A stretch of 36,850 nt of DNA, from positions 16,289,024 through 16,325,873 of the forward strand of contig NC_057751.1 in NCBI RefSeq assembly GCF_004010195.1. Direction: 5' to 3'. The translations under genes and the position numbers were made by a program. The DNA comes from Chiloscyllium plagiosum (taxonomy: Eukaryota). Every line of letters starts with the position of its first letter. Within the stretch, counting starts at the first letter, position 1. Positions 2,588 to 34,997 of the stretch are shown here, piece after piece. The notes beneath the pieces are model-generated. The model saw only the letters and a list, made by a program, of their open reading frames with translations, was not told where the DNA came from and did not search any database.

Positions 2588-3279
2588 CTGCAGTTGTGGC
2601 AGGAGGAAAAACCCGGAAACACCCGCAAGTGACCATCTTTCTCTTTTTTTTGTCTGTGCAGAGTTTTGGCCAGCAGTGAAGTCAGGCCTGGCCAGACATG
2701 GTAGGCCTCTTTGTAAATTAGCGGCGAAATAAGGCATAAAATGGCTGCCGGGTGACTCATGCATTTGTGGGGCAAGGGCGGGGGAGAATGGAGTGTTATT
2801 TATTGTGTTTATTTCCTGTTCGTCCTTAATTGCCTCTTGAGGACGTTAATGGTGCGCTGTCTTCCTGGAGGCAGTTAAAGAGTCAGCCTGCAGGTCTGAC
2901 ATCACATGTAGGCCGGACCAAGTAAAGACAACTGATTTGTTTCCAGAAAGGGACATAGTCAACCAAATGGACCTGAAACATCGATTCAGCGCTTTACAGC
3001 GATTTTAATCCCAGATTTCTTTAATGAACTGAGTTCAATGCGTAAACGACCATGAGAGGATTTGAGGTCAGACTAGGCCTCAAAGTTCCCATTCCAGTAC
3101 CATGACTGTTTGACCACATTCCCTCTCAAAACAAAAGGGTATGGGAAGCCGTGTGCGGCAATTAATGGCTGTTCTCTGCCTCTGAATGACAAATACTGAT
3201 TCTGAAACAGTTTTCGAACCTGTGTTAATTTTAATCCTGCAGTACAGATGTGGTGCTTTCATTTGTTTACCTAAAGCGA

Positions 3280-3830
3280 GAGTCATAGAGATGTTCAGCA
3301 CAGATACAGACCCTTCGGCCCAACTTGTCCTTGCCCACCCAGATATCCTCACCCAATCTAGTCCCACCTGCCAGCACCCGGCCCATATCCCTCTCAACCC
3401 TTCCTGTTCATGACCCCAGGGAAAAGACTTTGTCTATTTACCCTATCCATGCCCCCTCATGATTTTATAAACCTCTATAAGGTCACCCCTCAGCCTCCGA
3501 CGCTCTAGGGAAAAACAGCCTCAGCCTATTCCGTCTCTCCCTACAGCTTAAATCCCTGCAACCCTGGAAACACCCTTGTAAAATCATTTCTGCACCCTTT
3601 CAAGTTTCACAGCACCCTTCCGATAACAGGAAGACCAGAATTGCACGCAATATTCCAAACGTGGCCTAGCTGATGTCCTGTACGGCTGCAACATGACACC
3701 CAACTTTGACTAGATCCCTGCACCAATTAGAATCATACAGCACCCAAACAGGCCCTTCAGCCCAACGTGTCCATGCCGACCAGATTTCCCGAACTGAGCT
3801 AGTCCCATTTGCCTGCCTTTGGCCCCAATC
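3280..3830 (-). mobile_element. CR1/HER1-like LINE 3' fragments
   Basis: Reverse-complement 3' UTR (gacccttcggcccaac) and ORF2 C-terminal remnants. Confidence 0.85.
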
Positions 3831-4196
3831 CCACCATATTTCCTGTTTTCCGCACCCAATGGCCACACTCAGACAGTATTTCCTGGAAGTTTATGACCAA
3901 TCGGCTTTCGAGGGAGCTTTTGAGATGATGCAGCGTTCGAAATCATGAGAAACGGGGACAGAGCAGAGAGTGGGAAATCTGCTCCCACCGATGGAAGGGC
4001 CAAAAGCTGAAGGATGTCAATTTAAGATGATTGGTCGAAGGGAAAGTGGGGACGAGGAGGGAGGAGAAAGCAGTTATGGGACCGGAGGGAAAATGGTGGA
4101 AGAGTTGAGTGGGGACGCGGAGGGGTTTAGCTGTGTTGCTCTTGCACAGGGCCAGCACAGATGCAATGGGCCGAACGGTGCTATGTGACGATTTAG

Positions 4197-4850
4197 GGCG
4201 GCACTGTTGCCTCATGGTGCCAGGGTCCTGCGTTCGATTCCAGACTCGGGTGACTGTCTGTGTGGAGTTTGTACATTCTCCACACCTCCGACCCCCCCCC
4301 CCCCAGTGTCTGTGCGTGGGTTTCCTCCGGGTGCTCTGGTTTCCTCCCACAATCCAAAGATGTGCAGGTTAGGGTGGATTTGCCATGCTAAATTACCCAG
4401 AGTGCCCAAGGATGTGCAGGTTAGGGTGGATTGGCCGTGCTAAAATACCCATAGTGCCCAGGGATGTACAGGTTAGGGTGGATTGGCCATGCTAAATTGT
4501 CTCAGTGTTGAGGGATGTGCAGGTTAGGGTGGATTGGCCATGCTAAATTACCCATAGTGTTCAGGGATGTGCAGGTTAGGGTGGATCGGCCATGCTAAAT
4601 TACCCATAGTGTTCAGGGATGTGCAGGTTAGGGTGGATTTGCCATGCTAAATTACCCATAGTGCCCAGGGATGTGCAGGTTAGGGTGGATTGGCCATGCT
4701 AAATTACCCCTAGTGCCCAGGGATGTGCTGGTTAGATGCATTAGTCAGGGGTAAATGTAGAGTAGTAGTAGAATGGATCTGGGTGGGATACTTTTCAGAG
4801 GGTCGGTGTGGACGTGTTGGGCTGAATCCCCACACTAAGGATCCTATGAT
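4197..4850 (+). mobile_element. HE1-like tRNA-derived SINE with about 7 internal 52-bp tandem units
   Basis: B box gttcgattcc; unit gatgtgcaggttagggtggattggccatgctaaattacccatagtgttcagg starting at 4359, 4411, 4463 ... 4722; LINE-like tail. Confidence 0.85.
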
Positions 4851-5147
4851 TCCACGACACTCTCTTGCTCTGTGGAGACTTCAGTTCCCTCCCCTGCCTC
4901 CCCTGAGACAGTTTGTGCGCATGGATGTCCACTCCCTGGAAACAGGCCATGACGGGACGGTGACTGGGGTCCTTCTGAAGAGGGGGCAGGGACTGAAGCG
5001 GCCATGGATTAGCGCCATGATTTGGGATGACCGTGAAGCGAGCCACAGCGGCTCCCGTTACCCCCCCACCCCCACGCACTGGGGCCCCGGGCGTTCAGGG
5101 TCAGAGGCTTTACAGGCCTGAGGTAGGCCTTGGACGATGCTACTCAC

Positions 5148-5276
5148 CATGACGGTTCGCCAGCTCGTGTACTCCCCTAGCGCCAAAGCGATGTAGATAA
5201 ATATTACCAGGTAACTGATGGCGAAGATGGGAATATCTTCCGCCGTGGTTCTGTTGATCTCATCCTCCAGGGACCG
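5148..5276 (-). CDS. NPC1L1: NPC1L1 exon 5 equivalent (start of sterol-sensing domain)
   Basis: RSLEDEINRTTAEDIPIFAISYLVIFIYIALALGEYTSWRTVM; tgttcccag| and ATG|gtgagt; 129 bp. Confidence 0.96.
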
Positions 5277-5530
5277 CTGGGAACACATTGGGGGAAAGAA
5301 AGAGTCTTTCACAGAGGCCTGTCACCTTGAGGGCCCGGCTGAGGTGTGAGGTGAAACACGTGACTCAGCAGTCCCTCTGTCCTGTGCCACCGTTCAATAA
5401 AACCACGTCTGATTGGATTGTGGCCTCAACCCCACATTCCTGCTACCCCAGTGTTACCCATCAGTTCCCTGGTCAGTGGAGAGTCTAGCTCCCTCAGCCT
5501 GAAACGTTAGGCCTCAGCCTAAGAGGGTCA

Positions 5531-6045
5531 GGCACGGTGGCTCAGTGGTTAGCATTGCTGCCTCACGGTGCCAGGGATTCGTGTTCAATTCCAGCCTCGG
5601 TCGACTGTCTGTCTGTGGGCAATTTGCACCTCCGGGTGCTCCGGTTTCCTCCCACAATCCAAAGATGTGCAGGTTTAGGATGCTAAATTACCCATAGTGC
5701 TCAGGGATGTGCAGGTTAGGGTGGATTGGCTGTGCTAAATTACCCATAGTGCTTAGGGATGTGCAGGTTAGGGTGGAGTGGCCGTGCTAAACTACCCATA
5801 GTGCTTAGGGATGTGCAGGTTAGGGTGGATTGGCTGTGCTAAACTACCCACAGTGCTCAGGGATGTGCAGGTTAGGGTGGATTGGCCATGCCAAATTACC
5901 CATAGTGTCTGGGGATGTGCAGGCTAGGTGGACTAGCCACGGGAAATATAGGTATACGGGGATAAGGTAGTGACTTGTATCTAACAAAGGGTCGGTGTGG
6001 AACTGATGGGCCGAATGGCCTGCTTCCACACTGTAGGGGTTTGAT
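5531..6045 (+). mobile_element. HE1-like SINE with about 5 internal 52-bp units
   Basis: A box tggctcagtgg, B box gttcaattcc, tandem units, tail gggccgaatggcctgcttccacactgtagg. Confidence 0.9.
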
Positions 6046-6594
6046 GGTGCAGTAGAGACCTTTGGCATCTTGTAGGCCTCAATAGGATCAACTGTTCAAC
6101 AGGATCCTTACTTAAATGGAGAGGCCGAAAACGATGTACAGTAGTCCAGATGTGATCTCACCAATGCAGTGTTACCAATAACTGAAAATATCGATTAAGT
6201 GCCCTTCCCAAGCTTTTTTATTGTTGCTGGTCGACGTGAGGGATAACCATGAGAAAGCTGAAACCGCAGTTAGAAGTTATAGGGTCGGTAATTGTCATAG
6301 AGAAATCCTGTTTAGCTGCACCTCTCTCACTCTCACACTGTGGTCTCTCTCTCTCTCTCTCCCTCAACAATTTTCAAGCCCCAGCGACCGCCCTCCCCCT
6401 CAGAAGCAGAAGGACGGGCCTTGGCGGGGTGAGGGGGGGGGGGGGGGAATTCATTGGCGAAGGGCGTTGTTAAAACCCTTTCCGTCTGGCGCCATGCCAA
6501 GGGAAGGGTGGGCGGCTGGGTTAGCGACCCCCCTCCTGTGGTGATGGCCAACATTACTGACCCTCCCGGCCGGCATTCCCGCCCAGACACCTAC

Positions 6595-6767
6595 CTCAGA
6601 CATATAGGCAAAGCTGAAGTTGATGGACTTGTTGTTTTTATAGTCCTGGAGAATCTTTAAATACTCCCGCTCCCAAAGCACCACGTATTCATACTTGGGA
6701 TCGTCGGGCTGGTAGTTGTTCAGAGAGAACGTCACAATGAAGGCCTCTGCCCTGCTGTAGTCTTCGT
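6595..6767 (-). CDS. NPC1L1: NPC1L1 exon 4 equivalent
   Basis: DEDYSRAEAFIVTFSLNNYQPDDPKYEYVVLWEREYLKILQDYKNNKSINFSFAYMSE; ctttaacag| and GAG|gtaggt; 173 bp, phase 1 to 0. Confidence 0.96.
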
Positions 6768-6989
6768 CTGTTAAAGACAGAGCCGAGGTCAAAGGGAACA
6801 GCAAACTGCCAAATCCTCCCCCACCCACTCCCCCCTGTCCTGTGAGTCGTTCCTAATTGCGTGAGAAGTGGCGATCACTGGTTGGAAAGGGGCGCCAGCT
6901 ATGCCCATCCCTAATTACCCACAATCGTCTTGACTCTTTACCGTTCCCAGGCCAATTAAGATCCAACCAGGCTGCTGTGGATCCGGACT

Positions 6990-7450
6990 CAAGTTGAAAG
7001 TGAGAGGGGAAAGTGTAAAAGGGACCTGAGAGGCAATTTTTTCACGCAGAGGGTGGTACGTGTATGGAATGAGCTGCCAGAGGATGTGGTGGAGGCTGGT
7101 ACAATGGCAGTATTTAAGAGGCATTTGGATGGGTATATGAATAGGAAGGGTTTGGAGGGATATGGGCCGGGTGCTGGCAGGTGGGACTAGATCGGGTTGG
7201 GATATCTGGTCGGCATGGACGGGTTGGACCGAAGGGTCTGTTTCCGCGCTGTACATCTCTATGACACTAAATGGGACTGGATTGGGTTGGGATATCTGAG
7301 TCAGCATGGACGGGTTGGACCGAAGGGTCTGTTTCCGCGCTGTACATCTCTATGACTCTAAATGGGACTGGATTGTGTTGGGATATCTGGGTCAGCATGG
7401 ACGGGTTGGACCGAAGGGTCTGTTTCCGCGCTGTAAATGACTCTATGATC
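6990..7450 (+). mobile_element. CR1/HER1-like LINE 3' end with a triplicated tail of about 90 bp
   Basis: ORF2 C-terminus, then tgggact...ggaccgaagggtctgtttccgcgctgta three times (about 7181, 7272, 7362). Confidence 0.9.
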
Positions 7451-7790
7451 TCTCGACATGCGTGTAGACCAGATCAGGTGAAGACAGAAGATTTTCTTTC
7501 ACTGAAGGGAGATCAGTGAAAGTGACAGGGCCTTTCTTCAGTAACAGGTGAGCCAGCTCGCTTGAACTGACACGTTACCCCACTCCCAGCCCAGGGATCA
7601 CCAGCCCAGTCGAGTTATCACTGCGTCCCCCCTCAGAGCTGAGTGAAAATATTTCTCGAAAGAATCTCAAAACCAAGCGAACTGCACCTTGACCCGGATT
7701 CGCCAAAACCCATCCCTTCGGGCACAAGGACGGCGTTCCTCAGGGAAATGAGGAATGTGGCTCGAACCTCCTCACCCTGAACTCGCTCAC

Positions 7791-7891
7791 CCTGATATCC
7801 GCCCACGGCCAAAAATGGAAAAACCGGTGCGCCATAGTCCGCCATGCAGCTCATTCCCAATTCCGTGCTGTCCTTGAAAGAGAGAGGTGAG
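7791..7891 (-). CDS. NPC1L1: NPC1L1 exon 3 equivalent
   Basis: (N)SPLSFKDSTELGMSCMADYGAPVFPFLAVGGYQ; tctctccag| and G|gtgagc; 101 bp, phase 2 to 1. Confidence 0.96.
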
Positions 7892-8361: not shown

Positions 8362-8716
8362 GGGGTATTGTGTGTGCCACATTATGGGAATGATGTGAAA
8401 ATGTTGGAGAGAGAGAGAGAGCGCAGAAGGGATTTACAACAACGGGGACGGGAAACATCAGCGATGAGGAGAGAGATGGAAGACGTTGGGAGCGTCCTCC
8501 TCCCGATAGAGGATTTCAGAATCAGGAGTGGGGGCTGGACAGGGTAGAGAGAGAGAGAAGCTGTCCCTGTTTGTGAAAGGAACAAGAACGAGGGGGGGGG
8601 GTGGGGGCAGACATTTGAAGGGACGTTCAAATGAAGCAAGGGGGACGTGAGAGAGAACCCCCTCACCCAGCGCGTGGTTAGGGTGTGGGAATGCACTGCC
8701 TGGAAACCTGGGGGAG
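8362..8716 (+). repeat. Decayed CR1-like fragment; near-identical inverted copy of 29434-29801
   Basis: Direct comparison; the ORF track gives identical peptides at 8382..8696(-) and 29454..29693(+). Confidence 0.9.
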
Positions 8717-9173
8717 CGGGGAGGGAAAGATCGACAGGGAGAGAACGGTGGCTCGGTGGTTAGCACCGCTGCNNNNNNNNNNNNNNNNNNNNNNNNNNNN
8801 NNNNNNNNNNNNNNNNNNNNNNNNNNNNNNNNNNNNNNNNNNNNNNNNNNNNNNNNNNNNNNNNNNNNNNNNNNNNNNNNNNNNNNNNNNNNNNNNNNNN
8901 NNNNNNNNNNNNNNNNNNNNNNNNNNNNNNNNNNNNNNNNNNNNNNNNNNNNNNNNNNNNNNNNNNNNNNNNNNNNNNNNNNNNNNNNNNNNNNNNNNNN
9001 NNNNNNNNNNNNNNNNNNNNNNNNNNNNNNNNNNNNNNNNNNNNNNNNNNNNNNNNNNNNNNNNNNGGGGGTGAAGAGGGGGGAGGGAGAGGGGAAATGA
9101 GGTGGCGGGGGGAGGGGTTGGGAGGGAGAAGTGGAAGGGGTTGGGGTGGCGGGGTGGGGGGAAGGATACCTAC

Positions 9174-10741
9174 TTGACGCAGTAGAGGAAGTGATCCCTC
9201 CAGTCCACGGTGCCGGTGACCCCTGCCATGGTTTGGTTGGCGACAGCGTCGATAAGGCTCCTGTTGTTCTGGAAGTACTGGAGCAGGCTGTTGACCGCAC
9301 AGTCGGTAGGCCCGGGGTTATTGGGCTGGAGCGGGGCGTAGCAAATGTCCTTCAGCGTGATGTTCCTCTGCGCTGTCTCTGACCACACACTGATGGCCTG
9401 CAACCGGCTCTGGAGATCCAGCAGCTGGAGCAGCAGCTCCTTGGAGAACAGGCCGCTGAAGGCCGTGGGCCCGAAGAACACCGAGTCGTAGGTGTACCCC
9501 GGTGGGCCTTCCCCCGTCGCCGTGGCGATGATCTGGTTGGTGCGGAAGAAGGGCCCGAACTGGGCGTCGTGGAAAGCTTTCTCGCGGCGGGCCCTGCTGT
9601 CCGGGGCAGACCACAGTTCCACTGGGTCAGTGGTCAGCTCGACAAAGACTAGGCCGCAGGACAGCACGCCAACGATGACGCAGGCGGTGACCAGGACAGG
9701 CAGTGGGTGCCGTGCCACTGCCGTTCCCCAGCTCTGGAAAACCCAGCTCAGTCTCTGCTGTGTGGCGGAGGTGGAGGATGAGGAGATGGGAGCTGAGGGA
9801 GCCGCAGGGGCCTTGCTCCCCTCCTTGCGGGCGTCTGGGCGCTGCCTGAAGAGGAGGAGGAGGCCGGCGAAGAGGAGGATGGCCCCGCCGAACAGGGCCA
9901 GGCCCAGCGCCAAGGGCCCGTCCATCTGGCCAATCGCCCAAGGGCCGGGGGGCGCCGGGGGAAAGGGCAGCGCCGGGCAGGAGGCCACGCAGTCCTGGCA
10001 GGAGCATGCCTGCCCCCCGGGGCTCGAGGGCCGGTCACAGCGATGGAAGCTGCCGTCGTAAGGCACGATGCCCCCTCCCGGGCCCGGGCCCGGCTCCGAG
10101 CCATTGTTCTTTGGCGGGACCAGCACGAACTTGATGTCGAGCGGCGCCAGGCCGTTGGAGCTGTCCCCTTGGAAACGCAGCCAGCGTTCGGCGTTACACA
10201 GGGTGGAGCCGTACTTGCCGCACATGGCGGAGATGGCGTAGCCGCCGGTGGAGGGGATGCGGACGTCGCGGCAAGAGTCGTAGCTGCCCTCGGCAAAGCG
10301 GCGGCTGTAGTAGCACTGGTACTCCAGCACGGCGTCGAGTAGCTGACCGGAGACGTTGGCGATGAAGGCCCGGGTCACGTTGATGTGGACGCTCTGGTTG
10401 GGGCTGCAGGTGTTCTGGCAGTACAGGTTGACAAAGTTGTCCACACAGGACGGGCAGCGGCTCAGCAGCGGCTTGGACATGGCCAGGCTCCTGTCCAGCA
10501 TCTCCAGCTGCTTGGCCGAGCAGCAGGCCCGAGGCTCCGCCCCAGCGCCCTCCGCCCCCACCAGCATCGGGCACACCCGCTGCAGCAGCTCCAGGTGCCT
10601 GCCCGGCGTCACCCGCTTGGCCGGCCCGTTGTACAGGCACGGCACCCGGGCCTGAATCAAGCTGCCGGTCACCTCCGGGTTCTTCCCACAGTCTTCGTAG
10701 AAAGCGCAGAAACCTTCCTGGTGGACGGGGGTGTAGGTCGC
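9174..10741 (-). CDS. NPC1L1: NPC1L1 large exon (human exon 2 equivalent): N-terminal cholesterol-binding domain, TM1-2, start of middle luminal domain
   Basis: ATYTPVHQEGFCAFYEDCGKNP...CSCQDCVASCP...ELTTDPVELWSAPDSRARREKAFHDAQFGPFFRTNQ...DWRDHFLYCV. Acceptor ttcctttctcttccag| at 10742, donor AA|gtaggt at 9173; 1568 bp, phase 0 to 2. One large exon over this span is typical of NPC1L1, whereas NPC1 splits it into many exons. Confidence 0.97.
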
Positions 10742-10951
10742 CTGGAAGAGAAAGGAAACCGTTTCTGGAGCCAAATGGAGGCAGTCGCCATGGAGACAGT
10801 CTCGTGGGGAGGCCACTCGGTTGGCTGCTCTGAGGCCACACCGTCTTGCCAGCTTCTGTACCCTCCTGGACTTCTCAGACGCCAAAGCAGCCCATGTCCA
10901 AGGGCAGCTAGATCTTGGACAGCATCCCAGTCTGGACTTGCCAAGAACTTT

Positions 10952-11685
10952 CACGCTGCTAAGTGCCAGGTAATGGACGCCCTCAGCAAAAGAATCTGAC
11001 CATCAACCCCTTGACGTTCGATCGCATTACCATCACTGTATCCCCCCCCTCCAATGTCAACATCCTGGGGGTTACTGTCTCCAACAAGAGAGAATCTAAC
11101 CATCACCCCCTTGACGTACAAAGGTGTTACCATCACTGAATTCCCCCCCCCCCCACTATCAATATCCTAGGGGGTTACCGTCTCTAACAAGAGAGAATCT
11201 AACCATCGCCCCTTGACGTTCAATGGTGTTACCATCACTGAATTCCGCCCCCCCCACTATCAATATCCTAGGGGGTTACAGTCTCCAATAAGAGAGAATC
11301 TAACCATCGCCCCCTTGACGTTCAATGGCATTACCATCACTGAATTTCCCACACACAACTATCAACATCCTGGGGGTTACCATTGACCAGAAACTGAACT
11401 GGACCAGCCCCATATAAACACAGCGGCTACAAGAGCAGGTCAGAGGCTGGGAATCCTGCAGTGAGTAACTCCCCTCCTGACTCCCCCCAAAGCTTGTCCC
11501 CACCATCGACAAGGCCCAAGTCAGGAGGGTGTGAGGGAATACTCCCCACTTGCCCTGGATGGTGGTGGGGGGTGGGGGGGGGTAGCTCCAACAACACTCG
11601 AGAAGCTCGACACCATCCAGGGACAAAGCAGCCCCCGCTCGATTGATCCCACCCCCACAAACCCCCAGTCCCTCCACCACCTCTT
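10952..11685 (+). mobile_element. L2/CR1-group LINE fragment with 4 tandem copies of an internal segment of about 95 bp
   Basis: INILGVTIDQKLNWT (post-RT LINE motif) at about 11360-11405, preceded by the repeated aagagagaatctaaccatc...ccttgacgttcaatgg unit. Confidence 0.75.
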
Positions 11686-12344
11686 ACTCATTGACGGTGA
11701 AGCCTCAGAAACCTTTGGATGAGTCCCGACTCCCGCAAGCGAGGGGCGTTCATGGACTCTTGCAGAGGGAAACAGAGCTGGAAAAAGGGAACGGACTTGC
11801 CTTGGAATTCCTCATTTCACATCTGAGGCAAGAGGTGAGACATGGGGGAAACAGCATTTAAATATTAAACTGAGGCCTTTATGTTTTCAGCCTTATTGAG
11901 TAGGCCTCCCACCCAAAAACAGTCCTTAGCAATCTAGTTCGGAAGGCAAGATGGGCGTAGCTCACTAGACAACAGAGTTGGCTGACTTACTCTTCCAAGT
12001 TAGTCAAAGAGTCATGCAGCACAGAAACAGACCCTTCGGCCCAACCAGCCCATACCGATCCTAATCCCAAACTAAACTAGTCCCACCTGCCTGCCCCTGG
12101 CCCATGTCCCTCCAAACCTTTCCTGTTCATGCACTTATCCAAATGTCTTTATAACATTGTAACGGTATCCACGTCCACCACTTCCTCTGGACATTCATTC
12201 CACACACGCAGCACTCTGTGTGTAAAACAAAAATTGCCCCTCATGTCCTGTTTAAGACTTTCTCCTCTCACCTTAAAAACAAAACCTCTAGTTTTGAACT
12301 CCTCCACCCTGGGGGAAAGGACCTCGTCTATTCACCCTATGTTT

Positions 12345-12650
12345 TGTCACCATACTAGGTAACATCGTCAGTGGGACTCCAGGCTGTTGATAATTCCTGC
12401 TTTCTATTTATATGTTTGGGTTTCTTTGGGTCGGGGATGTCATTTCCTGTAGCGACATCATTCTCCGTGGTGATGTCATTTCCTGTTCTTTTTCTCAGGT
12501 GGTGGGAGATGGGGTCTCACTCAATGTTGTTTGTTGATGTCTGAAGATGTGACCTAGTCGGGTGACGAAACGTCTGGGAACGAACCTTCCAGCTCAGCGA
12601 GCAAACCTACATCCAGAACCTCAACCTGAGATACAAATCTTCTCAAAACG
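12345..12650. mobile_element. Penelope-like fragment inserted in a CR1 3' end
   Basis: Hammerhead core at 12541; repeated gatgtcatttcctgt motif; flanked by a near-duplicated ctattcaccct (about 12328 and about 12653), after which the CR1 resumes. Confidence 0.5.
12541..12580 (+). ncRNA. Hammerhead core of a different Penelope-type family, stem I disrupted
   Basis: CTGAAGA-t-gtgacc-tagtcg-ggtgac-GAAA-cg-TC; stem II has one mismatch; palindromic ACGT stem III. Confidence 0.55.
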
Positions 12651-12959
12651 TGCTATTCACCCTGTCCGTGTCCCTCATGATTTTATAAAACCTCGACAAG
12701 GTCGCCCCTCAGCCTCCGATGCTCCAGGGAAAGCAGCCCCGGCCTATTCAGCCTCTCCCTCTCGCCCAAGCCCTCCAACATCCTGGAAAACCTTTTCTGA
12801 ACTTTCTCCAGCTCGACAATATCTTTCCTGTAACAGGGTGACCGGAACTGGATGCAGTATTCCAGAAGAGACGTCACCAACATCTTGTACAACCACAACA
12901 TGATGTTTCAACCCCTATACCCGAAGGACTGAGTAATGGAGGCACGTCCCTCAGGACCC

Positions 12960-13385
12960 TCACCAACTTTTACACAGGAAGTATTCTGTCTGGGTTCATC
13001 ACAGCAAGAAACAACAGAAAATTGGGAACACAGCCCATTCCCTCACGTTGACTCCATCTTTGCTTCCCGCTGCACTGGGACATTATCAAAGACCCCTCCC
13101 ACCCCAGATACACTCTCTTCCAATCTCTCCATCAGACGGAAGATACAAACGCGAAAACACAACAGCTTCCTCCCCCTCCAAACCCCGATGTTCTTAGACT
13201 GCTGAACGGCCCCCTCGTGTTTTCAAGTCGAATGGCGTCCTTACTTTCCTGTCCACCTCCTGTTGAGCTGTGACCGTGTTCTGCTTCTCGCTCTGTTCTA
13301 TCACCCTCTGATCTGTGTGTTACGATCTGCTCGCCGAAACAAAACCATTCACTGTCCTCAGGTGGGTGTGACAGCAATAACTCAA
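12960..13385 (+). mobile_element. Decayed LINE 3' end, Rex/Babar-like
   Basis: tcccgctgc...atcaaagaccc...aacagcttcctcccc and tail ttcactgt...gtgacagcaataa resemble fish Rex/Babar tails (from memory). Confidence 0.45.
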
Positions 13386-13520
13386 ACCCGCAATCCGGGT
13401 CCCGATTGGTCAGCCCGTGTAGAGAGGGAGCTCGCCAACTGATTGAGGCGGGGGGGGGGGTGTATCTGAGGGTCGGGGGTCAAAGAGAGGGCAGGACTGT
13501 CCTGACAAGTTCAGTAGAAA

Positions 13521-13720
13521 TCACTGGGCCCTTGAGGTAAGCGAGCTAAATGCCTTCTTAACCACTCTGTCTATATGTGACGCAAACTCCAAAGGACCTA
13601 GTATCTGAATCCCTAGGTCCCTCTGCTCTACAGCACTACCCAAGGCCCTGCCGTTAAGTCCTGCCCTTGCTGGTTTTACCAAAATGCAGCACCTCGCATT
13701 TATCCAAATTAAACTCGACC
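13521..13720 (-). mobile_element. CR1-like LINE fragment
   Basis: EFNLDKCEVLHFGK and LGSAVEQRDLGIQI. Confidence 0.8.
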
Positions 13721-13774
13721 TGCACACGCACACACACCTCTGCATAAAAGGCTGCTGACTGAGATAAACGTGAT

Positions 13775-13897
13775 GGGGAGGTGCTGGTATTGGACTGGGG
13801 TGGACAAAGTGAAAAATCACACCACGTCTGGTTAAGGTCCAACAGGTTTATTGGGAAGCGCTAGCTTTCGGAGCGCTGCTCCTTCGTCAGGGAGCTG
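13775..13897 (-). mobile_element. Penelope-type short repeat
   Basis: Hammerhead core followed by aataaacctgttggac...gtgtgatttt; homologous to 15029-15114. Confidence 0.6.
13858..13893 (-). ncRNA. Second copy of the same hammerhead motif, stem I degenerate
   Basis: Minus strand: CTGACGA-a-ggagc-agc-gctcc-GAAA-gc-TA-gcg. Confidence 0.6.
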
Positions 13898-15028
13898 CCG
13901 AAGGTAACGATGCAAGATCTTACGGCCAATGTATTAACGTGGATTGACCATTGATTAACCACAGGAAGCAAAGAGTGAGGGTGAGTGAGTGCTATTGTGG
14001 TTAGCAGTCAGTGACTCATGGTGTACCCCGGGGATCAGCAATGGGACCGCAATTATTCCCAATTTACACAGATGGTTTGGAGCTGGGGAACCACGTGTAG
14101 TGTGTCAAGGTTTGCGGATGACACTAGAGCAAAGTGTGCAGAGGACTGGGAAATTTTGCAAAGGATAGTTGAAGTGAGTGGGGAAAGGTCGGGGAGATGG
14201 AGTACAATGTGAATAAATGTGGAGTCATCCATCTTGGGAGGAGTAACAGTAACATGAACAGTAGGAACTTGCGGCACGCCGCTGTGCAGAGGGACCTGGG
14301 TGTCCTTGTNNNNNNNNNNNNNNNNNNNNNNNNNNNNNNNNNNNNNNNNNNNNNNNNNNNNNNNNNNNNNNNNNNNNNNNNNNNNNNNNNNNNNNNNNNN
14401 NNNNNNNNNNNNNNNNNNNNNNNNNNNNNNNNNNNNNNNNNNNNNNNNNNNNNNNNNNNNNNNNNNNNNNNNNNNNNNNNNNNNNNNNNNNNNNNNNNNN
14501 NNNNNNNNNNNNNNNNNNNNNNNNNNNNNNNNNNNNNNNNNNNNNNNNNNNNNNNNNNNNNNNNNNNNNNNNNNNNNNNNNNNNNNNNNNNNNNNNNNNN
14601 NNNNNNNNNNNNNNNNNNNNNNNNNNNNNNNNNNNNNNNNNNNNNNNNNNNNNNNNNNNNNNNNNNNNNNNNNNNNNNNNNNNNNNNNNNNNNNNNNNNN
14701 NNNNNNNNNNNNNNNNNNNNNNNNNNNNNNNNNNNNNNNNNNNNNNNNNNNNNNNNNNNNNNNNNNNNNNNNNNNNNNNNNNNNNNNNNNNNNNNNNNNN
14801 NNNNNNNNNNNNNNNNNNNNNNNNNNNNNNNNNNNNNNNNNNNNNNNNNNNNNNNNNNNNNNNNNNNNNNNNNNNNNNNNNNNNNNNNNNNNNNNNNNNN
14901 NNNNNNNNNNNNNNNNNNNNNNNNNNNNNNNNNNNNNNNNNNNNNNNNNNNNNNNNNNNNNNNNNNNNNNNNNNNNNNNNNNNNNNNNNNNNNNNNNNNN
15001 NNNNNNNNNNNNNNNNNNNNNNNNNNNN

Positions 15029-15063
15029 CACCTGATGAAGGAGCGTCGCTCCGAAAGCTAGTG
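15029..15063 (+). ncRNA. Minimal type I hammerhead ribozyme motif in a Penelope-type repeat
   Basis: cac-CTGATGA-a-ggagc-gtc-gctcc-GAAA-gc-TA-gtg: complete core, 5-bp stem II, cac/gtg stem I (5' arm cut by the gap), very short palindromic stem III (AGCT). Confidence 0.75.
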
Positions 15064-15114
15064 TTGCTTCCAATTAAACCTGTTGGACTATAACCTGATG
15101 TTGTGTGATTTTTA
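15029..15114 (+). mobile_element. Penelope-type short repeat interrupting a CR1 fragment
   Basis: Homologous to 13775-13897 in the opposite orientation. Confidence 0.6.
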
Positions 15115-16088
15115 ATCTTGGGAGGAGTAACAGTTACAAGGATTATTACATGAACAGTAGGAACTTGCGGCACACTGCTGTGCAGAGGGACCTGGGTGTC
15201 CTTGTGGATGAATCTCGGAAGGTTGGTCATAGAGATATATGGCCTGCAGGTAATGAGGAAGGCAGATGGAGCTCTGTCCTCCATTGCTAGAGGGATGGAG
15301 TTTAAAAGCAGGGAGGTTATGGTACAGGGAGCTGGTGAGGCCACACCTGGAGGACTGTGTAGTTTTGGTCTCCTCACTTGAGAAGGGATGGACGGGCACT
15401 GGAGGGGGATGCAGAGGAGATTCACTGGGTTTGATTCCGGAGTTGAGGGGTTTGTTTTATGAGGAGAGACTGGGATTGTATTTATTGGTATTCAGAAGAA
15501 TTCGAGAAACATATAGAATTACGAAAGAAATCAAGAAGATAGAGGATGTTTCCACTGGCCGGTGAAACTAGGATAAGAGGGCATAGCCNNNNNNNNNNNN
15601 NNNNNNNNNNNNNNNNNNNNNNNNNNNNNNNNNNNNNNNNNNNNNNNNNNNNNNNNNNNNNNNNNNNNNNNNNNNNNNNNNNNNNNNNNNNNNNNNNNNN
15701 NNNNNNNNNNNNNNNNNNNNNNNNNNNNNNNNNNNNNNNNNNNNNNNNNNNNNNNNNNNNNNNNNNNNNNNNNNNNNNNNNNNNNNNNNNNNNNNNNNNN
15801 NNNNNNNNNNNNNNNNNNNNNNNNNNNNNNNNNNNNNNNNNNNNNNNNNNNNNNNNNNNNNNNNNNNNNNNNNNNNNNNNNNNNNNNNNNNNNNNNNNNN
15901 NNNNNNNNNNNNNNNNNNNNNNNNNNNNNNNNNNNNNNNNNNNNNNNNNNNNNNNNNNNNNNNNNNNNNNNNNNNNNNNNNNNNNNNNNNNNNNNNNNNN
16001 NNNNNNNNNNNNNNNNNNNNNNNNNNNNNNNNNNNNNNNNNNNNNNNNNNNNNNNNNNNNNNNNNNNNNNNNNNNNNNNNNNNNNNNN

Positions 16089-17258
16089 CTGGGAGTGTTT
16101 AATGGGGGACAGTGTAGAGGGAGATTTACTCTGTATCTCACCCCGCGCTGTACCTGTCCTGGGAGTGTTGATGGGGGAAAAGTGTAGGGAGAGCTTTACT
16201 CTATATCTAATCCCATACAGTCCCTGTCCGGGGAGTGTTGATGGGGGACAGTGTAGAGAGAGCTTTACTCTGTATCTAACCCCATACAGTCCCTGTCCGG
16301 GAATGTGTAATGGGGGACAGTGTAGGGAGAGCTTTACTCTGTATCTAACCCCATGCTGGCCCTGTCCTGGGAGTTTTTGATGGGGGACAGTGTAGAGAGA
16401 GCTTTACTCTGTATCTAACCCCATGCTGAACCTGTCCTGGGAGTGTTTGACGGGGGACAGTGTAGAGAGAGCTTTACTCTGTATCTAACCCTGTGCTGTC
16501 CCTGTCCTGGGAGTGTTGGATGGGGAACAGTGTAGAGAGAGCTTTACTCTGTATCTAACCCCGTGCTGTCCCTGTCCTGGGAGTGTTTGATGGGGGGACA
16601 GTGTAGAGACAGCTTTACTCTGTATCTAGCCCCATGCTGAACCTGTCCTGGGGGTGTTTGATGGAGGACAGTGTAGAGAGAGCTTTACTCTGTATCTAAC
16701 CCTGTGCTGTCCCAGTCCTGGGAGTGTTTGATGGGGGACAGTGTAGAGAGAGCTTTACTCTGTATCTAACCCCGTGCTGTCCCTGTCCTGGGAGTGTTTG
16801 AAGGGGGGACAGTGTAGAGAGAGCTTTACTCTGTATCTAACCCTGTGCTGTCCCAGTCCAGGGAGTGTTTTATGAGGGGGACAGTATGGAGAGAGTTTTA
16901 CTCTGTATCTAACCCCGTGTTGTCCCTGTCCTGGGAGTGTTTGATGGGGGGACAGTGTAGAGGGAGCTTTACTCTGTATCTAACCCCATGCTGTCCCTGT
17001 CCTGGGAGTGTTTGATGGGGGGGACAGTGTAGAGGGAGCTTTACTCTGTATCACACCCCATGCTGTCCCTGTCCTGGGAATGTTTGATGGGGGGGGCAGT
17101 GGGAAAAATTGTGACTGTGAGGAACTGATTCTTCACGCGCTCCCTTTTGTGATTGTCCATGCTGTCCCTGTCCTGGGAATGTTTGATGGGGGGGGGCAGT
17201 GGGAAAAATTGTGACTGTGAGGAACTGATTCTTCACGCGCTCCCTTTTGTGATTGTCC
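16089..17258. repeat. 70-bp minisatellite (about 14 copies) ending in two hybrid units of about 100 bp
   Basis: Unit ctgggagtgtttgatgggggacagtgtagagagagctttactctgtatctaaccccgtgctgtccctgtc; period 70 (tgtagagaga at 16391, 16461, 16531). Confidence 0.95.
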
Positions 17259-17470
17259 AGTCCCCATTGGACACTGTAGTGAGTAGTGCAGGGGATAATC
17301 GGAACAGGGTGCAGTCTGGGAGGGTGCCCAACCTGACGTCTGTGTTTTTTGTGGGTGTGTTTGGTGGGGCAGTTGGCGAATCCTGGCCGAGAGAATGGAA
17401 GGGGACGTTGTGGTTGCGAATACACCCCGCGCAGGAGTCTGGCGGACGGCGTTTACAAAGAGAGTGAGAC

Positions 17471-17720
17471 CTGTAGGGAAGGGGTTGGGCTGCACAGCGT
17501 CCAAGTACCGATTCACCATGTCGTAGAGCGGTTCGATCGAACCCGCGTCACCGTTCAGCCTCCTGAAAGCGTGCGTGCCAACCTCCTGGAAGGTGAGACG
17601 CTGGGCCGTGCAGTTCTGAGCCGTGGACGGCGGTGAGAGCTGCAGGACCACGCAGAGCGCCAGGCAGACTGCCGTCCCTGCTCCACTGGGCGCCAATCTC
17701 CAAGACACCTCGTTCGCCAT
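17471..17720 (-). CDS. Prominin-family (PROM2/PROM1-like) first coding exon: signal peptide plus N-terminal extracellular segment
   Basis: MANEVSWRLAPSGAGTAVCLALCVVLQLSPPSTAQ...AGSIEPLYDMVNRYLDAVQPNPFPT matches the prominin N-terminal motif G..LY..V..FL..VQ.NPFP. Acceptor ctttgactcggcag| at 17725, 4 nt before the ATG; phase-1 donor G|gtctca (weak) at the position expected for prominins. Paralog not assignable from one exon. Confidence 0.85.
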
Positions 17721-17825
17721 GACCCTGCCGAGTCAAAGATCACCCACAGTCACTGCTAATGTACCCATTCCCCAGCATCACCTCGTGATCTGCCAGCTAT
17801 CCCCTTTTGTCCAAACGCCCTCTTT

Positions 17826-18950
17826 TATGGAATGTGGGCACTGCTGGCCATGCCCCAGCATTTTCTGCCCCCTGTTCCCTCCCTAATTGCCCCCTTGCGA
17901 AAGTGGGGTTGAACCCCATGTGGTATAGGGAACCCCACACAGCGCCCTCAGGGAGGGAATCCCAGGATTCTGACCCAGCGACACTGAATGAACGGCCGAT
18001 ATATTTCCGAGTCGCGGACGGTGAGGGGCTCGGAGGGGGACTTGCAGGGGGGTGGTGTTCCCATGTTCCTGCTGCCCCTTGTCCGTCCAGATGGAAGTGG
18101 CCGTGGGGTTTGGAAGGTGCTGCCTGAGGAGCCTGGGCGAGTTGCTGCAGTGCGTCTTGTAGATGGTACCCACTGCTGCTACTGAGNNNNNNNNNNNNNN
18201 NNNNNNNNNNNNNNNNNNNNNNNNNNNNNNNNNNNNNNNNNNNNNNNNNNNNNNNNNNNNNNNNNNNNNNNNNNNNNNNNNNNNNNNNNNNNNNNNNNNN
18301 NNNNNNNNNNNNNNNNNNNNNNNNNNNNNNNNNNNNNNNNNNNNNNNNNNNNNNNNNNNNNNNNNNNNNNNNNNNNNNNNNNNNNNNNNNNNNNNNNNNN
18401 NNNNNNNNNNNNNNNNNNNNNNNNNNNNNNNNNNNNNNNNNNNNNNNNNNNNNNNNNNNNNNNNNNNNNNNNNNNNNNNNNNNNNNNNNNNNNNNNNNNN
18501 NNNNNNNNNNNNNNNNNNNNNNNNNNNNNNNNNNNNNNNNNNNNNNNNNNNNNNNNNNNNNNNNNNNNNNNNNNNNNNNNNNNNNNNNNNNNNNNNNNNN
18601 NNNNNNNNNNNNNNNNNNNNNNNNNNNNNNNNNNNNNNNNNNNNNNNNNNNNNNNNGGGGGGGGATTCAGTGATGGTAACACCATTGAACATCAAGGGGG
18701 TGATGGTTAGATTCTCTCTTGTTGGAGACGGTAACCCCCAGGATGTTGATAGTGGGGTCGGGGGGGGGATTCAGTGATGGTAACACCATTGAACATCAAG
18801 GGGGTGATGGTTAGATTCTCTCTTGTTGGAGACGGTAACCCCCAGGATGTTGATAGTGGGGTCGGGGGGGGGATTCAGTGATGGTAACACCATTGAACAT
18901 CAAGGGGGTGATGGTTAGATTCTCTCTTGTTGGAGACGGTCATTGCCTGA
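17826..18950 (-). mobile_element. L2/CR1-group LINE 3' end with internal tandem units (spans a gap)
   Basis: Homologous to 21836-23880; three units of about 105 bp at 18657-18940. Confidence 0.75.
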
Positions 18951-19517
18951 CTCCTTCCTGGCCACAGTGTTGCTCCAAGAGGGAATTTTAACGAATGGGA
19001 GTCAATGGGGAAATTCCCGAACTCCCAACCTTCATCCCTGGCGTGCAAGACTGTGAGGCGGAAATCTTCTCTCTCCCCGTCCCCGTTTCCCATCACATAC
19101 CAGGCGTGGGAATGATGTCACCATGGAGAACATGCTTGGGCCTGTTGTAGCCCGTGCTCACCTCTCCTTCTCCAGCTGAGGAGTTATCCCCTGGCGTGGA
19201 TCTCGGGGAACTTTCCAGGGCACGTTTGTGGCGAGTTTACCTGCTGGGATTGGTGAGGGAGGGGGGACAGGGGAATCCACTGAGCCCTCAGAGACCCCAG
19301 TCTGAGGGGGAAGAGATCACCATGGAGGAGAATTTCAGAATCGATGGATCCTCTAAGGAAAGGAAGAGGTTTGTGGGGAGGGTGTGCGCTCCTGTTCTCG
19401 CCTCACGCACTTTTAAGGGATGGACAGCCACCTCAGACTGACAACTTGGCTCCGACGTACACAATGCTTACACGCAGACACGCAAATACTCACAACGGGA
19501 ACACAAAACAGCCTTAC

Positions 19518-19690
19518 CTGGCCAACTTTTGAGAGATAGTGCCTGTCCGTGCTGTCACTGCCCTGTCTTGGAGTTGCAGTCAGCAAAGATAGAGACATCG
19601 GTTTCCCGGTCCTGTGGGATGGGGAGGGCTGCTGCTTGAGACACTTCACAGAGCAGCAAACTTGTCCAACAGGTTCAAGAACCCTCTGAC
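19518..19690 (-). other. Putative non-coding first exon of the prominin-like gene
   Basis: Strong donor CAG|gtaagg at 19518/19517 in unique sequence, upstream of an ATG exon that has its own acceptor; the 5' end is a guess from the TATA-like motif. Confidence 0.5.
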
Positions 19691-19790
19691 ATAAACAAAG
19701 GCGATACGGGGCGCTGAGAAAAGTTATAAATAAACGTGACTGCCGGTCGTTCCTTCCAGATTGCTCACTCAAGGGCGCGGCTCAAACTTC
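19675..19790 (-). promoter_or_regulatory. Putative promoter of the prominin-like gene
   Basis: Minus strand gtttatttataactt (TATA-like, forkhead-like) at about 19721-19735 and tttgtttat at about 19691-19699; motif evidence only. Confidence 0.3.
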
Positions 19791-20603
19791 ACAGAGCAGA
19801 CTTGGTAACGACACCTCCCCAAGCCTGTTCAGACAGGAGCATCACTCGCTCGCAAATGGCCGCAAGGTTAGCAAATGGGTAACGGCAGCCAACAACAACT
19901 CCGTTCAAATCCAGAGAGAGAGAGAGAGACAGAGAGAGAGACAGAGAGTTTGTCAAACTCCCTGCAATGTGGGAAGCAGACCAGTTTGGCCCACCGAGTC
20001 TGTAATGGCCCTCTCCACAGCATTGCCGCCCATCACCCGACCCTATCCCTGGAACCACCCCCCCCCCCCCCCCCCCCCCCCCCGTTTTAACCCCNNNNNN
20101 NNNNNNNNNNNNNNNNNNNNNNNNNNNNNNNNNNNNNNNNNNNNNNNNNNNNNNNNNNNNNNNNNNNNNNNNNNNNNNNNNNNNNNNNNNNNNNNNNNNN
20201 NNNNNNNNNNNNNNNNNNNNNNNNNNNNNNNNNNNNNNNNNNNNNNNNNNNNNNNNNNNNNNNNNNNNNNNNNNNNNNNNNNNNNNNNNNNNNNNNNNNN
20301 NNNNNNNNNNNNNNNNNNNNNNNNNNNNNNNNNNNNNNNNNNNNNNNNNNNNNNNNNNNNNNNNNNNNNNNNNNNNNNNNNNNNNNNNNNNNNNNNNNNN
20401 NNNNNNNNNNNNNNNNNNNNNNNNNNNNNNNNNNNNNNNNNNNNNNNNNNNNNNNNNNNNNNNNNNNNNNNNNNNNNNNNNNNNNNNNNNNNNNNNNNNN
20501 NNNNNNNNNNNNNNNNNNNNNNNNNNNNNNNNNNNNNNNNNNNNNNNNNNNNNNNNNNNNNNNNNNNNNNNNNNNNNNNNNNNNNNNNNNNNNNNNNNNN
20601 NNN

Positions 20604-20768
20604 CTGCACATCCCTGAACACTATGGGGTAATTTAGCACAGCCAATCCACCCTAACCTGCACATCCCTGAGCACTATGGGTAATTTAGCAAGGCCAATCC
20701 ACCCTAACCTGCACATCTCTGGACACTATGAGCAATTTCCCATGGCCATTCCACCCTAACCTGCACAA
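20604..20768 (-). mobile_element. HE1-like SINE tandem units (truncated by a gap)
   Basis: Reverse complement of the 52-bp unit, about 3 copies. Confidence 0.85.
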
Positions 20769-20972
20769 TCTTCATGAAAGGGTCTCTCTCTCTCTCTCCC
20801 TCTGTAGGGTATCAGTTCTAATCTCACCACGGCACCTCATGCTATCTAACTCAATCTTTTTTTTTCAGGAGAATAGGGAACTTCAAAACTGGATGTACAA
20901 CAAAAACCCATCCAGTCCCCGCATTGAGACAGAAGTTGGCCACTTTTATACTGCTCTGACCAAAATGTGACT

Positions 20973-21627
20973 TGTTACGGACCAGACCAAATCCCCTCGC
21001 AATATTTTATGATAACCTGGACCCTAAGTTGTTCTTATATTGCATTCCAATTACAGATTTAGCAAAACTACCAGATTTGAGACTCACTGACGTCTACACA
21101 ATGGAAACTGGCCTTTTGGCCCAAGTCATCCATTTGAATCAAAGCTCGCTTTAATCATACATGATCATTAAAACGCAGCCCCAGAAATTGGAATAACTAA
21201 CTCTGTGGGAAGACTTGACAGAATAGTAGGTTATTTAATGACTTAAACAGTACCAGCTCCATGACAGTAACATCCCATAAACACTATGTCCTTGGCAAAG
21301 GCAAATTTAGTAAATTTGCCAATACTCTATTCTAGGAGGACGAAGAGAGAGAGAGAGAGAGAGAGTAAGAATAGCCAGGTGAGATGTACTGCAGTTTCTA
21401 AATCCAGCTTCAAGACTCCAGCTACTGAAAACCTAAACCGAAAAGTCCAAGTTCTGTGGGAGCTTGACCCCACCCAGTCAGGCTGCTGCTATTGTTTCAA
21501 CTTTTACACAAGGCCTCACAAGCTGTTTACTTTAAGGACTTTCCATCGGCTCCTCTGCTTTAAAATCTCTCTTCAAAATTATCAAAAAAGGACACGAAGC
21601 ACTTCTGAAATTCAAAGGTTTGTCACA
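20973..21627. mobile_element. Probable solo LTR
   Basis: Starts TGTTAC and ends GTCACA (TG...CA, imperfect terminal inverted repeat); AT-rich block; flanks gact/gaca are a possible 4-bp TSD with one mismatch. Confidence 0.5.
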
Positions 21628-21835
21628 GACACCAGACAACAGGAATGAAGTGAGGTCTGAACTGCCCTCTGAAATAGCCAAGTGAGCCAATCACATCAAA
21701 GGAAAGGGCAATGGGAAGCAAATGCTAGTGATTCCTGCATTCCATGAAAGAGTCAATATACCTTAAAAACTTCCCCCAAGAGTCCTCCCAAACTGGGGCC
21801 ATTTTTACAACAGTTACCGCCTGGTTCCCCCTTAA

Positions 21836-23880
21836 CTGCCCCCTTGAGAAGGTGGGGGAGAGCTGCCATCTTGGACCGTGTGTGGTGTAGGGACCCCCCC
21901 CCCCCCCCCCAACACAGCGCTCTCAGGGAGGGAGTCCCAGGATTCTGACCCAGCGACACTGAAGGAACGGCCGATACATTTCCGAGTCGGGACGGTGAGG
22001 GGCTTGGAGGGGAACTTGCAGGGGGTGGTGTTCCCATGTACCTGCTGCCCCTTGTCCTTCCCGATGGAAGTGGCCGTGGGGTTTGGAAGGTGCTGTCTGA
22101 GGAGCCTGGGTGAGTTGCTGCAGTGCGTCTTGTGGATGGTACCCACTGCTGTTACTGAGCGTCGGGGGGTGGAGGTAACACCACTGAACGTCAAGGGGGC
22201 GATGGTTAGATACTCTCTTGTTGGAGTTGGTCACCCCATGATGATGATAGTGGGGGATTCAGTGACGGTAACACCACTGAACGTCAAGGGGGCGATGGTT
22301 AGATACTCTCTTGTTGGAGTTGGTCACCCCATGATGATGATAGTGGGGGATTCAGTGACGGTAACACCACTGAACGTCAAGGGGGCGATGGTTAGATACT
22401 CTCTTGTTGGAGTTGGTCACCCCATGATGATGATAGTGGGGGATTCAGTGACGGTAACACCACTGAACGTCAAGGGGGCGATGGTTAGATACTCTCTTGT
22501 TGGAGTTGGTCACCCCATGATGATGATAGTGGGGGATTCAGTGACGGTAACACCACTGAACGTCAAGGGGGCGATGGTTAGATACTCTCTTGTTGGAGTT
22601 GGTCACCCCATGATGATGATAGTGGGGGATTCAGTGACGGTAACACCACTGAACGTCAAGGGGGCGATGGTTAGATACTCTCTTGTTGGAGTTGGTCACC
22701 CCATGATGATGATAGTGGGGGATTCAGTGACGGTAACACCACTGAACGTCAAGGGGGCGATGGTTAGATACTCTCTTGTTGGAGTTGGTCACCCCATGAT
22801 GATGATAGTGGGGGATTCAGTGACGGTAACACCACTGAACGTCAAGGGGGCGATGGTTAGATACTCTCTTGTTGGAGTTGGTCACCCCATGATGATGATA
22901 GTGGGGGATTCAGTGACGGTAACACCACTGAACGTCAAGGGGGCGATGGTTAGATACTCTCTTGTTGGAGTTGGTCACCCCATGATGATGATAGTGGGGG
23001 ATTCAGTGACGGTAACACCACTGAACGTCAAGGGGGCGATGGTTAGATACTCTCTTGTTGGAGTTGGTCACCCCATGATGATGATAGTGGGGGATTCAGT
23101 GACGGTAACACCACTGAACGTCAAGGGGGCGATGGTTAGATACTCTCTTGTTGGAGTTGGTCACCCCATGATGATGATAGTGGGGGATTCAGTGACGGTA
23201 ACACCACTGAACGTCAAGGGGGCGATGGTTAGATACTCTCTTGTTGGAGTTGGTCACCCCATGATGATGATAGTGGGGGATTCAGTGACGGTAACACCAC
23301 TGAACGTCAAGGGGGCGATGGTTAGATACTCTCTTGTTGGAGTTGGTCACCCCATGATGATGATAGTGGGGGATTCAGTGACGGTAACACCACTGAACGT
23401 CAAGGGGGCGATGGTTAGATACTCTCTTGTTGGAGTTGGTCACCCCATGATGATGATAGTGGGGGATTCAGTGACGGTAACACCACTGAACGTCAAGGGG
23501 GCGATGGTTCAATTCTCTCTTGTTGGAGACGGTAACCCCCAGGATGTTGATAGTTGGGGGGCGTTGGGGGGTGGGGGAATACAGTGACGGTAACACCACT
23601 GAACATCAAGGAGGCGATGGTTCGAATCTCTCCTGTTGGATACAGTAACCCCCAGGATGTTGATAGTTGGGGGGCGTTGGGGGGAATACAGTGACGGCAA
23701 CACCACTGAACGTCAAGGGGGCGATGGTTCGATTCTCTCCTGTTGGAGACAGTAACCCCCAGGATGTTGATAGTTGGGGGGCGGGGGAGGGGGGAATACA
23801 GTGACGGCAACACCACTGAACGTCAAGGGGGCGATGGTTCGATTCTCTCCTGTTGGAGGTGGCGATCGCCTGACATTTGT
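21836..23880 (-). mobile_element. L2/CR1-group LINE 3' end containing a large internal tandem array
   Basis: Tail gctctcccccaccttctcaagggg on -; KCQAIATSNRRESNHRPL and TINILGVT motifs. Confidence 0.75.
22175..23476. repeat. 93-bp minisatellite, 14 apparently identical copies, followed by 4 degenerate copies to about 23858
   Basis: gtaacaccactgaacgtcaaggggg recurs every 93 bp from 22175 to 23477; translation VTPLNVKGAMVRYSLVGVGHPMMMIVGDSVT x14. Confidence 0.97.
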
Positions 23881-24799
23881 GTGTTAAAAATTGTGCTGAA
23901 ATGAACTCGGCTTCCCCCTTCCTGGGACAGGGCACAGTGTCCTGCCTTTAGCTGGAAATGCCTGCTATTAATTCACCTCAGTGCCTTAGCTCACTCCAGT
24001 TGTGAACGTATCCACCCTGTTTTCCTGCGGCTTTGCTCTGTATCTGTCGTTTGATCGGTGTCAATACAGCCCGAAGGATGTCAAAGATAAAAGGCATCAT
24101 TAAAGCAGATGAGATGCTGAGCTCTGTAACTACACGCTGAGGCTACAGGGACGAGAAAGTTCCCAGATTTCGGAGCGGATGAGGGCCATTCGGCCCACGG
24201 TTCGATCACGACAGATCATTGTTCCCCTCGGCCATAGTGCGAGTCCACAGACCCCATCGAGGCTTCTGACGAAGAAGGAATACCGAGGGTGAATTTGGGA
24301 CGGGACTACTTTGGTTCGAGACGGACAGTCCCAAAGTGACGGCCTCCTGCTGTCCCGATGCCACAAATGGAGCGATGGATTAAGCACGATACGCCAGGCT
24401 GTTCACTCTCCTCCTGCCTTACGCACCACACTAGCTATTTTGCCAGCCCTCGCCAACTTACATTGTCGAGACACAGTCGAATGTTCCCACTGACTTGATG
24501 AACAAATGCGCCTCCCCTCGCAACTTGACCCATCGTCGCTTTGGGGGTTTTCTTGTTAAACTTATAGCCGGTAAGAGATCCCAGAGCACTCGCAGAGAGA
24601 AAAACCGGGCCACCGATCCGAAAAAGCAGCGGCTCACCCTTTCCAGCGGTTGTGCTCCGCGGCAGGTTTTCATCCAAGCGCTGTCCACAGCGCTGTGACT
24701 GATCGTTACTTAACTCTCTCCAGCCAGGATCGACCAGCAGAGCCGGTCAATCAAGCAAAAGAGTGCTGGAGAAACTCAGCAGGTCTGGCAGAAATAGTG

Positions 24800-24830
<31 letters not shown>

Positions 24831-34898: not shown

Positions 34899-34997
34899 CA
34901 TACACACATGCATGCTGACACACACTCAGTCACACACACACTCAGTCACACACACACTCAGTCACACACACACTCAGTCACACACACACACCCCTAA

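Follow-up and report, generated by a model that had tools for sequence, protein, structure and literature searches.

A lone first coding exon of PROM2 upstream of NPC1L1 in Chiloscyllium plagiosum, with assembly gaps between the two genes

The prominin exon and the NPC1L1 gene

The window analysed here is the whole stretch of 36,850 nucleotides of Chiloscyllium plagiosum DNA (NCBI RefSeq assembly GCF_004010195.1, contig NC_057751.1, positions 16,289,024 to 16,325,873 of the forward strand). On its minus strand it contains a single coding exon of a prominin gene and, downstream, an NPC1L1 gene whose exon 1 is absent from the called bases, the interval between the two being interrupted by two gaps. 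An earlier note on this DNA had described the lone prominin exon at 17471-17720, 6.7 kb upstream of NPC1L1 exon 2 and on the same strand, and these coordinates are right. The main features are the following.

634-7890, minus strand: six more coding exons of NPC1L1 in order (approximate limits; tblastn with P0009, P0130 and P0131)
9174-10741, minus strand: NPC1L1 exon 2, from the NPC1 N-terminal domain to the start of the middle luminal domain, with a phase-0 start
10742-14309, minus strand: 3' part of NPC1L1 intron 1, repeat-rich
14310-15028, no strand: gap of 719 N, which by size could house NPC1L1 exon 1 alone
15589-16088, no strand: gap of exactly 500 N, likely a fixed-size scaffolding spacer, presumed to hide PROM2 exons 2 onward, an intergenic stretch and NPC1L1 exon 1
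16089-17259, no strand: satellite and 100-bp duplication, the end of the PROM2 contig
17471-17720, minus strand: first coding exon of PROM2 (prominin-2), encoding in 83 codons plus 1 nt the signal peptide and the beginning of the first extracellular domain

The prominin exon, as read from the sequence, comprises 250 nt from an ATG at 17720 to its end at 17471, in phase 1, and is followed by the donor CAG/GTCTCA. Its Pfam Prominin match (E 0.0012) is under the curated cut-off because the piece is short. The exon is 93% identical over all 83 amino acids (77 of 83 residues, E 6e-43) to P0002, a full-length 836-aa protein of the epaulette shark named 'prominin-2-like', and was recovered with E 1.4e-29 by a hidden Markov model (HMM) built from 14 chondrichthyan PROM2 proteins. 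Seven proteins matched it in a search of those of 147-2000 aa, all of them prominins of 370-838 aa, with P0002 first and the other six from sharks. A quick tree was built without bootstrap from 37 full-length rows, hand-chosen from the match lists and not including the window exon itself; there, nine NPC1L1-linked shark and ray proteins, P0002 among them, join the PROM2 of tetrapods, gar and bichir with a Shimodaira-Hasegawa-like approximate likelihood ratio (SH-aLRT) of 100. From the identity to P0002 and the placement of the shark and ray proteins, the exon is identified at the sequence level as the first coding exon of true PROM2, orthologue of the single PROM2 linked to NPC1L1.

The naming of these genes in sharks is crossed: the 'prominin-2-like' beside NPC1L1 is the PROM2 orthologue and the 'prominin-2' on another chromosome groups with PROM3. 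P0192, named 'prominin-2' for Chiloscyllium plagiosum, groups with PROM3 in the tree, as do the teleost 'prominin-2' rows.

Exon 2 of NPC1L1 follows an acceptor AG at 10743-10742 and contains the Pfam domains NPC1_N (E 1.8e-68) and NPC1_MLD (E 6.4e-34). It is identical at 522 of 522 amino acids to the public record P0130, listed under Chiloscyllium plagiosum, and the NPC1_N, middle luminal and sterol-sensing regions, found in colinear exons, identify the gene as NPC1L1. In Chiloscyllium punctatum (P0131) and in the epaulette shark (P0009) an 18-aa signal-peptide exon 1, differing at one residue between the two, stands directly before exon 2. The earlier note saw no such exon here, which is borne out: none of the 14 5-mers of the P0131 exon-1 peptide was identified in the six frames of the window, and a like search matched 9 aa elsewhere (E 3e-5). 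Exon 1 is therefore absent from the called bases, and the gaps are large enough to hide it. Residues 2-86 of P0130 are the intron at 10996-10742 (minus strand) read in frame, an 85-aa N-terminus with no signal peptide; this N-terminus is an artefact of annotation caused by the absence of exon 1. A correction to the earlier note is one short candidate first exon, itself without a signal peptide.

12336-12365, minus strand: 10-codon phase-0 candidate alternative NPC1L1 first exon, at a repeat edge and followed by GTGAAT

With 8 of its 10 residues shared with the start of the congener isoform P0133, this segment suggests that ordinary intron 1, common to the congener, lies immediately upstream of exon 2. 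Chiloscyllium punctatum also presents a second NPC1L1 record, P0129, a 146-aa C-terminus 98.6% identical to P0131 and on the same 76.7-Mb record, which is either a local duplication or an assembly duplicate.

Vertebrate prominins have more than 20 coding exons. Beyond the first coding exon, nothing of the five-transmembrane, multi-exon PROM2 was identified in the window, as the earlier note had also reported: tblastn with seven prominin proteins found only this exon, the PROM2 HMM matched it alone among 1,488 six-frame pieces, and a search for the PROM2 body cut into 30 pieces of 25 aa recovered none, whereas 19 of 20 NPC1L1 control pieces were recovered. The coding sequence absent from the window amounts to 2,261 nt (753 residues), compared with 1,219 N in both gaps together. 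The exon itself is open and presents no excess divergence relative to NPC1L1 exon 2, with 6 of 83 residues differing from the epaulette shark versus 33 of 526 (Fisher p 0.81). Partial PROM2 records were identified in other species, covering (in P0002 numbering) residues 415-836 in the whale shark, 6-350 in Mustelus and 20-683 in Rhinoraja.

The interval between the exons and the linkage of the genes in relatives

The interval between the prominin exon and NPC1L1 exon 2 comprises 6,729 bases, including the 1,219 N. Both gaps of the earlier note (719 bp and 500 bp) are real, as is the satellite beside the second, and its description of the interval as almost all repeats is right as to their presence but too strong in extent, self-comparison within the window marking 2,640 of the 5,510 non-N bases (48%). 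The 719-N gap is flanked on both sides by similar repeat copies, 83% alike. The satellite has a 70-bp unit in 14.3 copies (16089-17093) and abuts the 500-N gap, the only one of exactly 500 N among the seven gaps of the window. In PMC9292758, 500 N is given as the default spacer of the scaffolders 3d-dna and SALSA2, and PMC9516821 describes GC-rich promoters and 5' exons as preferentially missed by short-read assemblies. A fixed-size spacer at a repeat-terminated contig end, the mark of a scaffolding artefact, is what the 500 N beside the 70-bp satellite likely represents.

PROM2 and NPC1L1 are on a record of equal length in 14 of the 16 shark and ray species that could be compared: Hemiscyllium, Heterodontus, Cetorhinus, Carcharodon, Heptranchias, Rhincodon, Hemitrygon, Hypanus, two Mobula, Amblyraja, Narcine, Pristis and Rhinoraja. 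Of the two exceptions, Mustelus has the genes on two small scaffolds and Scyliorhinus torazame has them in different assembly versions. Stegostoma, Leucoraja, S. canicula, Pristiophorus and both Chiloscyllium species are outside this count, with one gene listed or no record length. The accessions of the two genes are consecutive in the whale shark and in Mobula birostris and at most 21 numbers apart in 6 of the 14 species. The gene order in other sharks, proposed earlier as a check, is thus answered as far as linkage is concerned, whereas order and orientation are not given by record lengths or accessions. PROM2 and NPC1L1 are ordinary neighbours in sharks and rays, presumably in the same orientation as here, which is a small point of synteny. 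The literature search found no paper on this linkage in sharks or rays; the passages available from PMC2446394 place chicken Prom2 on chromosome 22 and do not include NPC1L1. Among reptiles and caecilians, equal record lengths for both genes were also identified in Rhineura, Sceloporus, Eublepharis, Hemicordylus, Phrynosoma and Microcaecilia; a distance of 96 between the locus tags in Phrynosoma indicates genes that are linked and not adjacent.

Explanations for the missing parts

The explanation favoured here, with a probability of about 0.76, is an under-sized scaffolding gap in the draft assembly that hides PROM2 exons 2 onward together with NPC1L1 exon 1. PROM2 and then NPC1L1 would be ordinary neighbours on the same strand, the DNA between them having been lost from the draft. 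The PROM2 contig would have broken in the satellite just past the first coding exon and the NPC1L1 contig in the repeats of intron 1, after which the scaffolder would have joined both with a spacer of fixed length (500 N). The hidden block would comprise PROM2 exons 2 onward, an intergenic stretch, and the NPC1L1 promoter with its 18-codon signal exon. In the animal, splicing would then be normal, the PROM2 exon (phase 1) to its own exon 2 and NPC1L1 exon 1 (phase 0) to the 10742 acceptor. One lost block would explain both absences, because PROM2 lacks its 3' part and NPC1L1 its 5' part, each on the side facing the 500-N gap. If PROM2 is intact, as it probably is in Chiloscyllium plagiosum, the gaps are not to be taken at face value, because the 2,261 missing coding nucleotides exceed the 1,219 N; gaps of their written size holding PROM2 are ruled out as too small. 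The earlier note had offered a scaffold misjoin or an under-sized gap as its first option, of which the second part stands and the join of unrelated contigs or chromosomes is rejected, given the linkage of the two genes in other sharks and rays.

Several observations weigh against this explanation, the first being that no remaining part of PROM2 was found in Chiloscyllium plagiosum. No Chiloscyllium PROM2 of 459-1463 aa was among the 120 best matches listed, and no Chiloscyllium protein of 147-2000 aa carries this exon, records shorter than 147 aa (with the exon) or 459 aa (without it) being outside the search range. NPC1L1 of the congener is on a 76.7-Mb record, yet no long congener PROM2 was found. 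A rough frequency matrix gives the canonical PROM2 donor a score of 0.66 and six NPC1L1 donors scores of 6.9-9.8. Two other gaps are near 500 (470 and 509 N), and a 500 by chance is not impossible. Finally, 8 of the 14 accession pairs are 53-1,836 numbers apart, and accession order is no more than a hint of adjacency and is silent on orientation.

Other searches were also negative. Against representatives at 50% identity the exon gave three matches, one shark prominin and two weak unnamed, none recognisably from Chiloscyllium. Reads of four runs (X3, X11, X14 and X18; 90% likeness) gave no cover, joints or loose ends over 17262-17866, a result with no bearing on expression, splicing or loss. 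A search of runs with NPC1L1 9200-10990 listed 24 runs, 20 of them containing it with no RNA run on record among these, the DNA runs being contigs only.

The second explanation, a good deal less probable than the first but deserving some weight, is that PROM2 is truly truncated or being lost in Chiloscyllium, with only its 5' end left, and that a normal NPC1L1 exon 1 fell in the 719-N or the 500-N gap. It would fit with the failure to find a long PROM2 protein for either Chiloscyllium species, with the weak canonical donor and with the 195-aa read-through frame of the prominin exon, which is not an annotated protein (an exact look-up found no such protein in the collection). The exon, however, is open and not more diverged than NPC1L1, although that comparison has low power for a recent loss. 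A full PROM2 record was seen in only one of five carpet-shark species, the whale shark keeps an intact back half of PROM2, and NPC1L1 of Stegostoma is on a 199-kb scaffold, all of which indicates a locus that is hard to assemble. The second option of the earlier note, an orphan duplicated prominin 5' end, survives only in this form of a truncated PROM2. As a duplicate it is wrong, the exon being the orthologue of the single NPC1L1-linked gene, and a duplicate of another prominin is rejected on the basis of the tree.

The third explanation, which we consider very improbable, is that the contigs, though assigned to the right chromosome, are in the wrong order or orientation, or that the exon is a second, duplicated 5' end of PROM2. 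Hi-C scaffolding is more prone to inversions and misjoins according to PMC9292758, and the congener presents the duplicated NPC1L1 tail on one record described above; nevertheless, no second NPC1L1-linked prominin gene was identified in any relative among the matches listed, and one missing block accounts for both absences.

The last explanation, also most unlikely, is a fusion that places NPC1L1 under the promoter and behind the signal peptide of PROM2, the leader capture of the earlier note. It would consist of a species-specific germline deletion of the PROM2 body and NPC1L1 exon 1, with splicing from an internal phase-0 donor at 17517/17516 rather than the 17583/17582 proposed earlier. That weak site exists (138 nt) and leaves the frame open, but a better-scoring one was identified.

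17511-17519, minus strand: internal phase-0 GT (ATG/GTGAAT; intron would start at 17516), in conserved PROM2 coding sequence, the best in-frame site for a hypothetical fusion

Its score is 6.65, that of the 17582 site 3.18 and that of the canonical donor 0.66. The geometry would allow a fusion, as the genes are linked, on the same strand, and both encode type-I signal peptides, and the in-frame GT sites at 17516 and 17582 keep the frame open through NPC1L1 exon 2. Such sites are, however, common: 9 of the 20 GT sites in 17717-17400 are in phase 0, and those at 17516, 17582, 17456 and 17447 leave the frame open into NPC1L1. The canonical donor, weak and in phase 1 as the earlier note had it, would frameshift if joined directly to the phase-0 acceptor at 10742, with a stop at codon 266. 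The congener has a normal exon 1, so that the deletion must be species-specific, and it would have to coincide exactly with an assembly spacer. At E values of up to 1, the prominin exon has no match among 120 NPC1L1-type proteins, and the literature search gave no paper joining NPC1L1, prominin and 'chimeric transcript'. Leader capture thus has no positive support; a PROM2-NPC1L1 fusion is unlikely, being unsupported rather than directly refuted. Were it to exist against these odds, a fusion via 17517/17516 would add about 30 mature PROM2 residues to the NPC1L1 N-terminus and destroy PROM2, and it would amount to a fixed germline swap of promoter and leader that gives a cholesterol-uptake gene an altered tissue expression.

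If the under-sized gap is the right explanation there is no new biology at this locus, only a practical warning: the public NPC1L1 model would have an intron-derived N-terminus without a signal peptide, and PROM2 would appear lost in Chiloscyllium plagiosum, though it probably is not.

Neighbouring sequence and comparison with known systems

Two splice signals were identified upstream of the PROM2 ATG.

17721-17726, minus strand: putative acceptor, AG at 17726-17725, 4 nt before the ATG
19512-19520, minus strand: consensus donor CAG/GTAAGG (intron start 19517), which may close a non-coding 5' exon of PROM2

The donor at 19517 has the top score (11.5) of the splice sites scored and, together with the acceptor before the ATG, suggests a non-coding first PROM2 exon further upstream. 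In the 19 kb on the upstream side of PROM2 (17800-36850), Pfam revealed no other gene. Pfam was run on 114 of the 123 frames of at least 72 aa from 11 kb on, the nine left out overlapping the prominin exon or tandem arrays, and gave only the prominin exon and two matches below the cut-off, at 34143-34403 (LRRNT_2) and 34369-34617. Rfam gave no matches.

Other repeats comprise two inverted copies of 360 bp, 97.8% identical (8368-8724 and 29426-29785), which we take to be probably a young insertion of the LINE (long interspersed nuclear element) type. A 93-bp unit at 22174-23560 is present in 14.9 copies, 99% alike, with a 579-codon open frame on the plus strand, and related arrays of 102-107 bp are found at 10991-11381, 18657-18940 and 23461-23858.

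Among the closest known systems is PROM2 of the epaulette shark (P0002), which shares the exon boundary after the QPNPFP motif and the linkage to NPC1L1, the difference being that the window has the first coding exon only and misses 753 residues. NPC1L1 of C. punctatum (P0131) and Hemiscyllium (P0009) presents the same exon 2 (94-96% identical) with its phase-0 start and the same six exons in order; it differs in the 18-aa signal exon, absent from the window, a hole that P0130 fills with 85 intron residues. TMPRSS2-ERG is a promoter and leader fusion made by deletion between tandem genes. The likeness is in the same-strand neighbours and in the 5' end of one gene facing exon 2 of the other, whereas here the canonical splice frameshifts and the breakpoint would coincide with an assembly gap. 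The remaining comparison is with false gene losses at assembly gaps, as described in PMC9516821 and PMC9292758. The present case, probably one of this kind, resembles them in the missing 5' exon and promoter, in the GC-rich and repeat-rich setting and in the fixed 500-N spacer.

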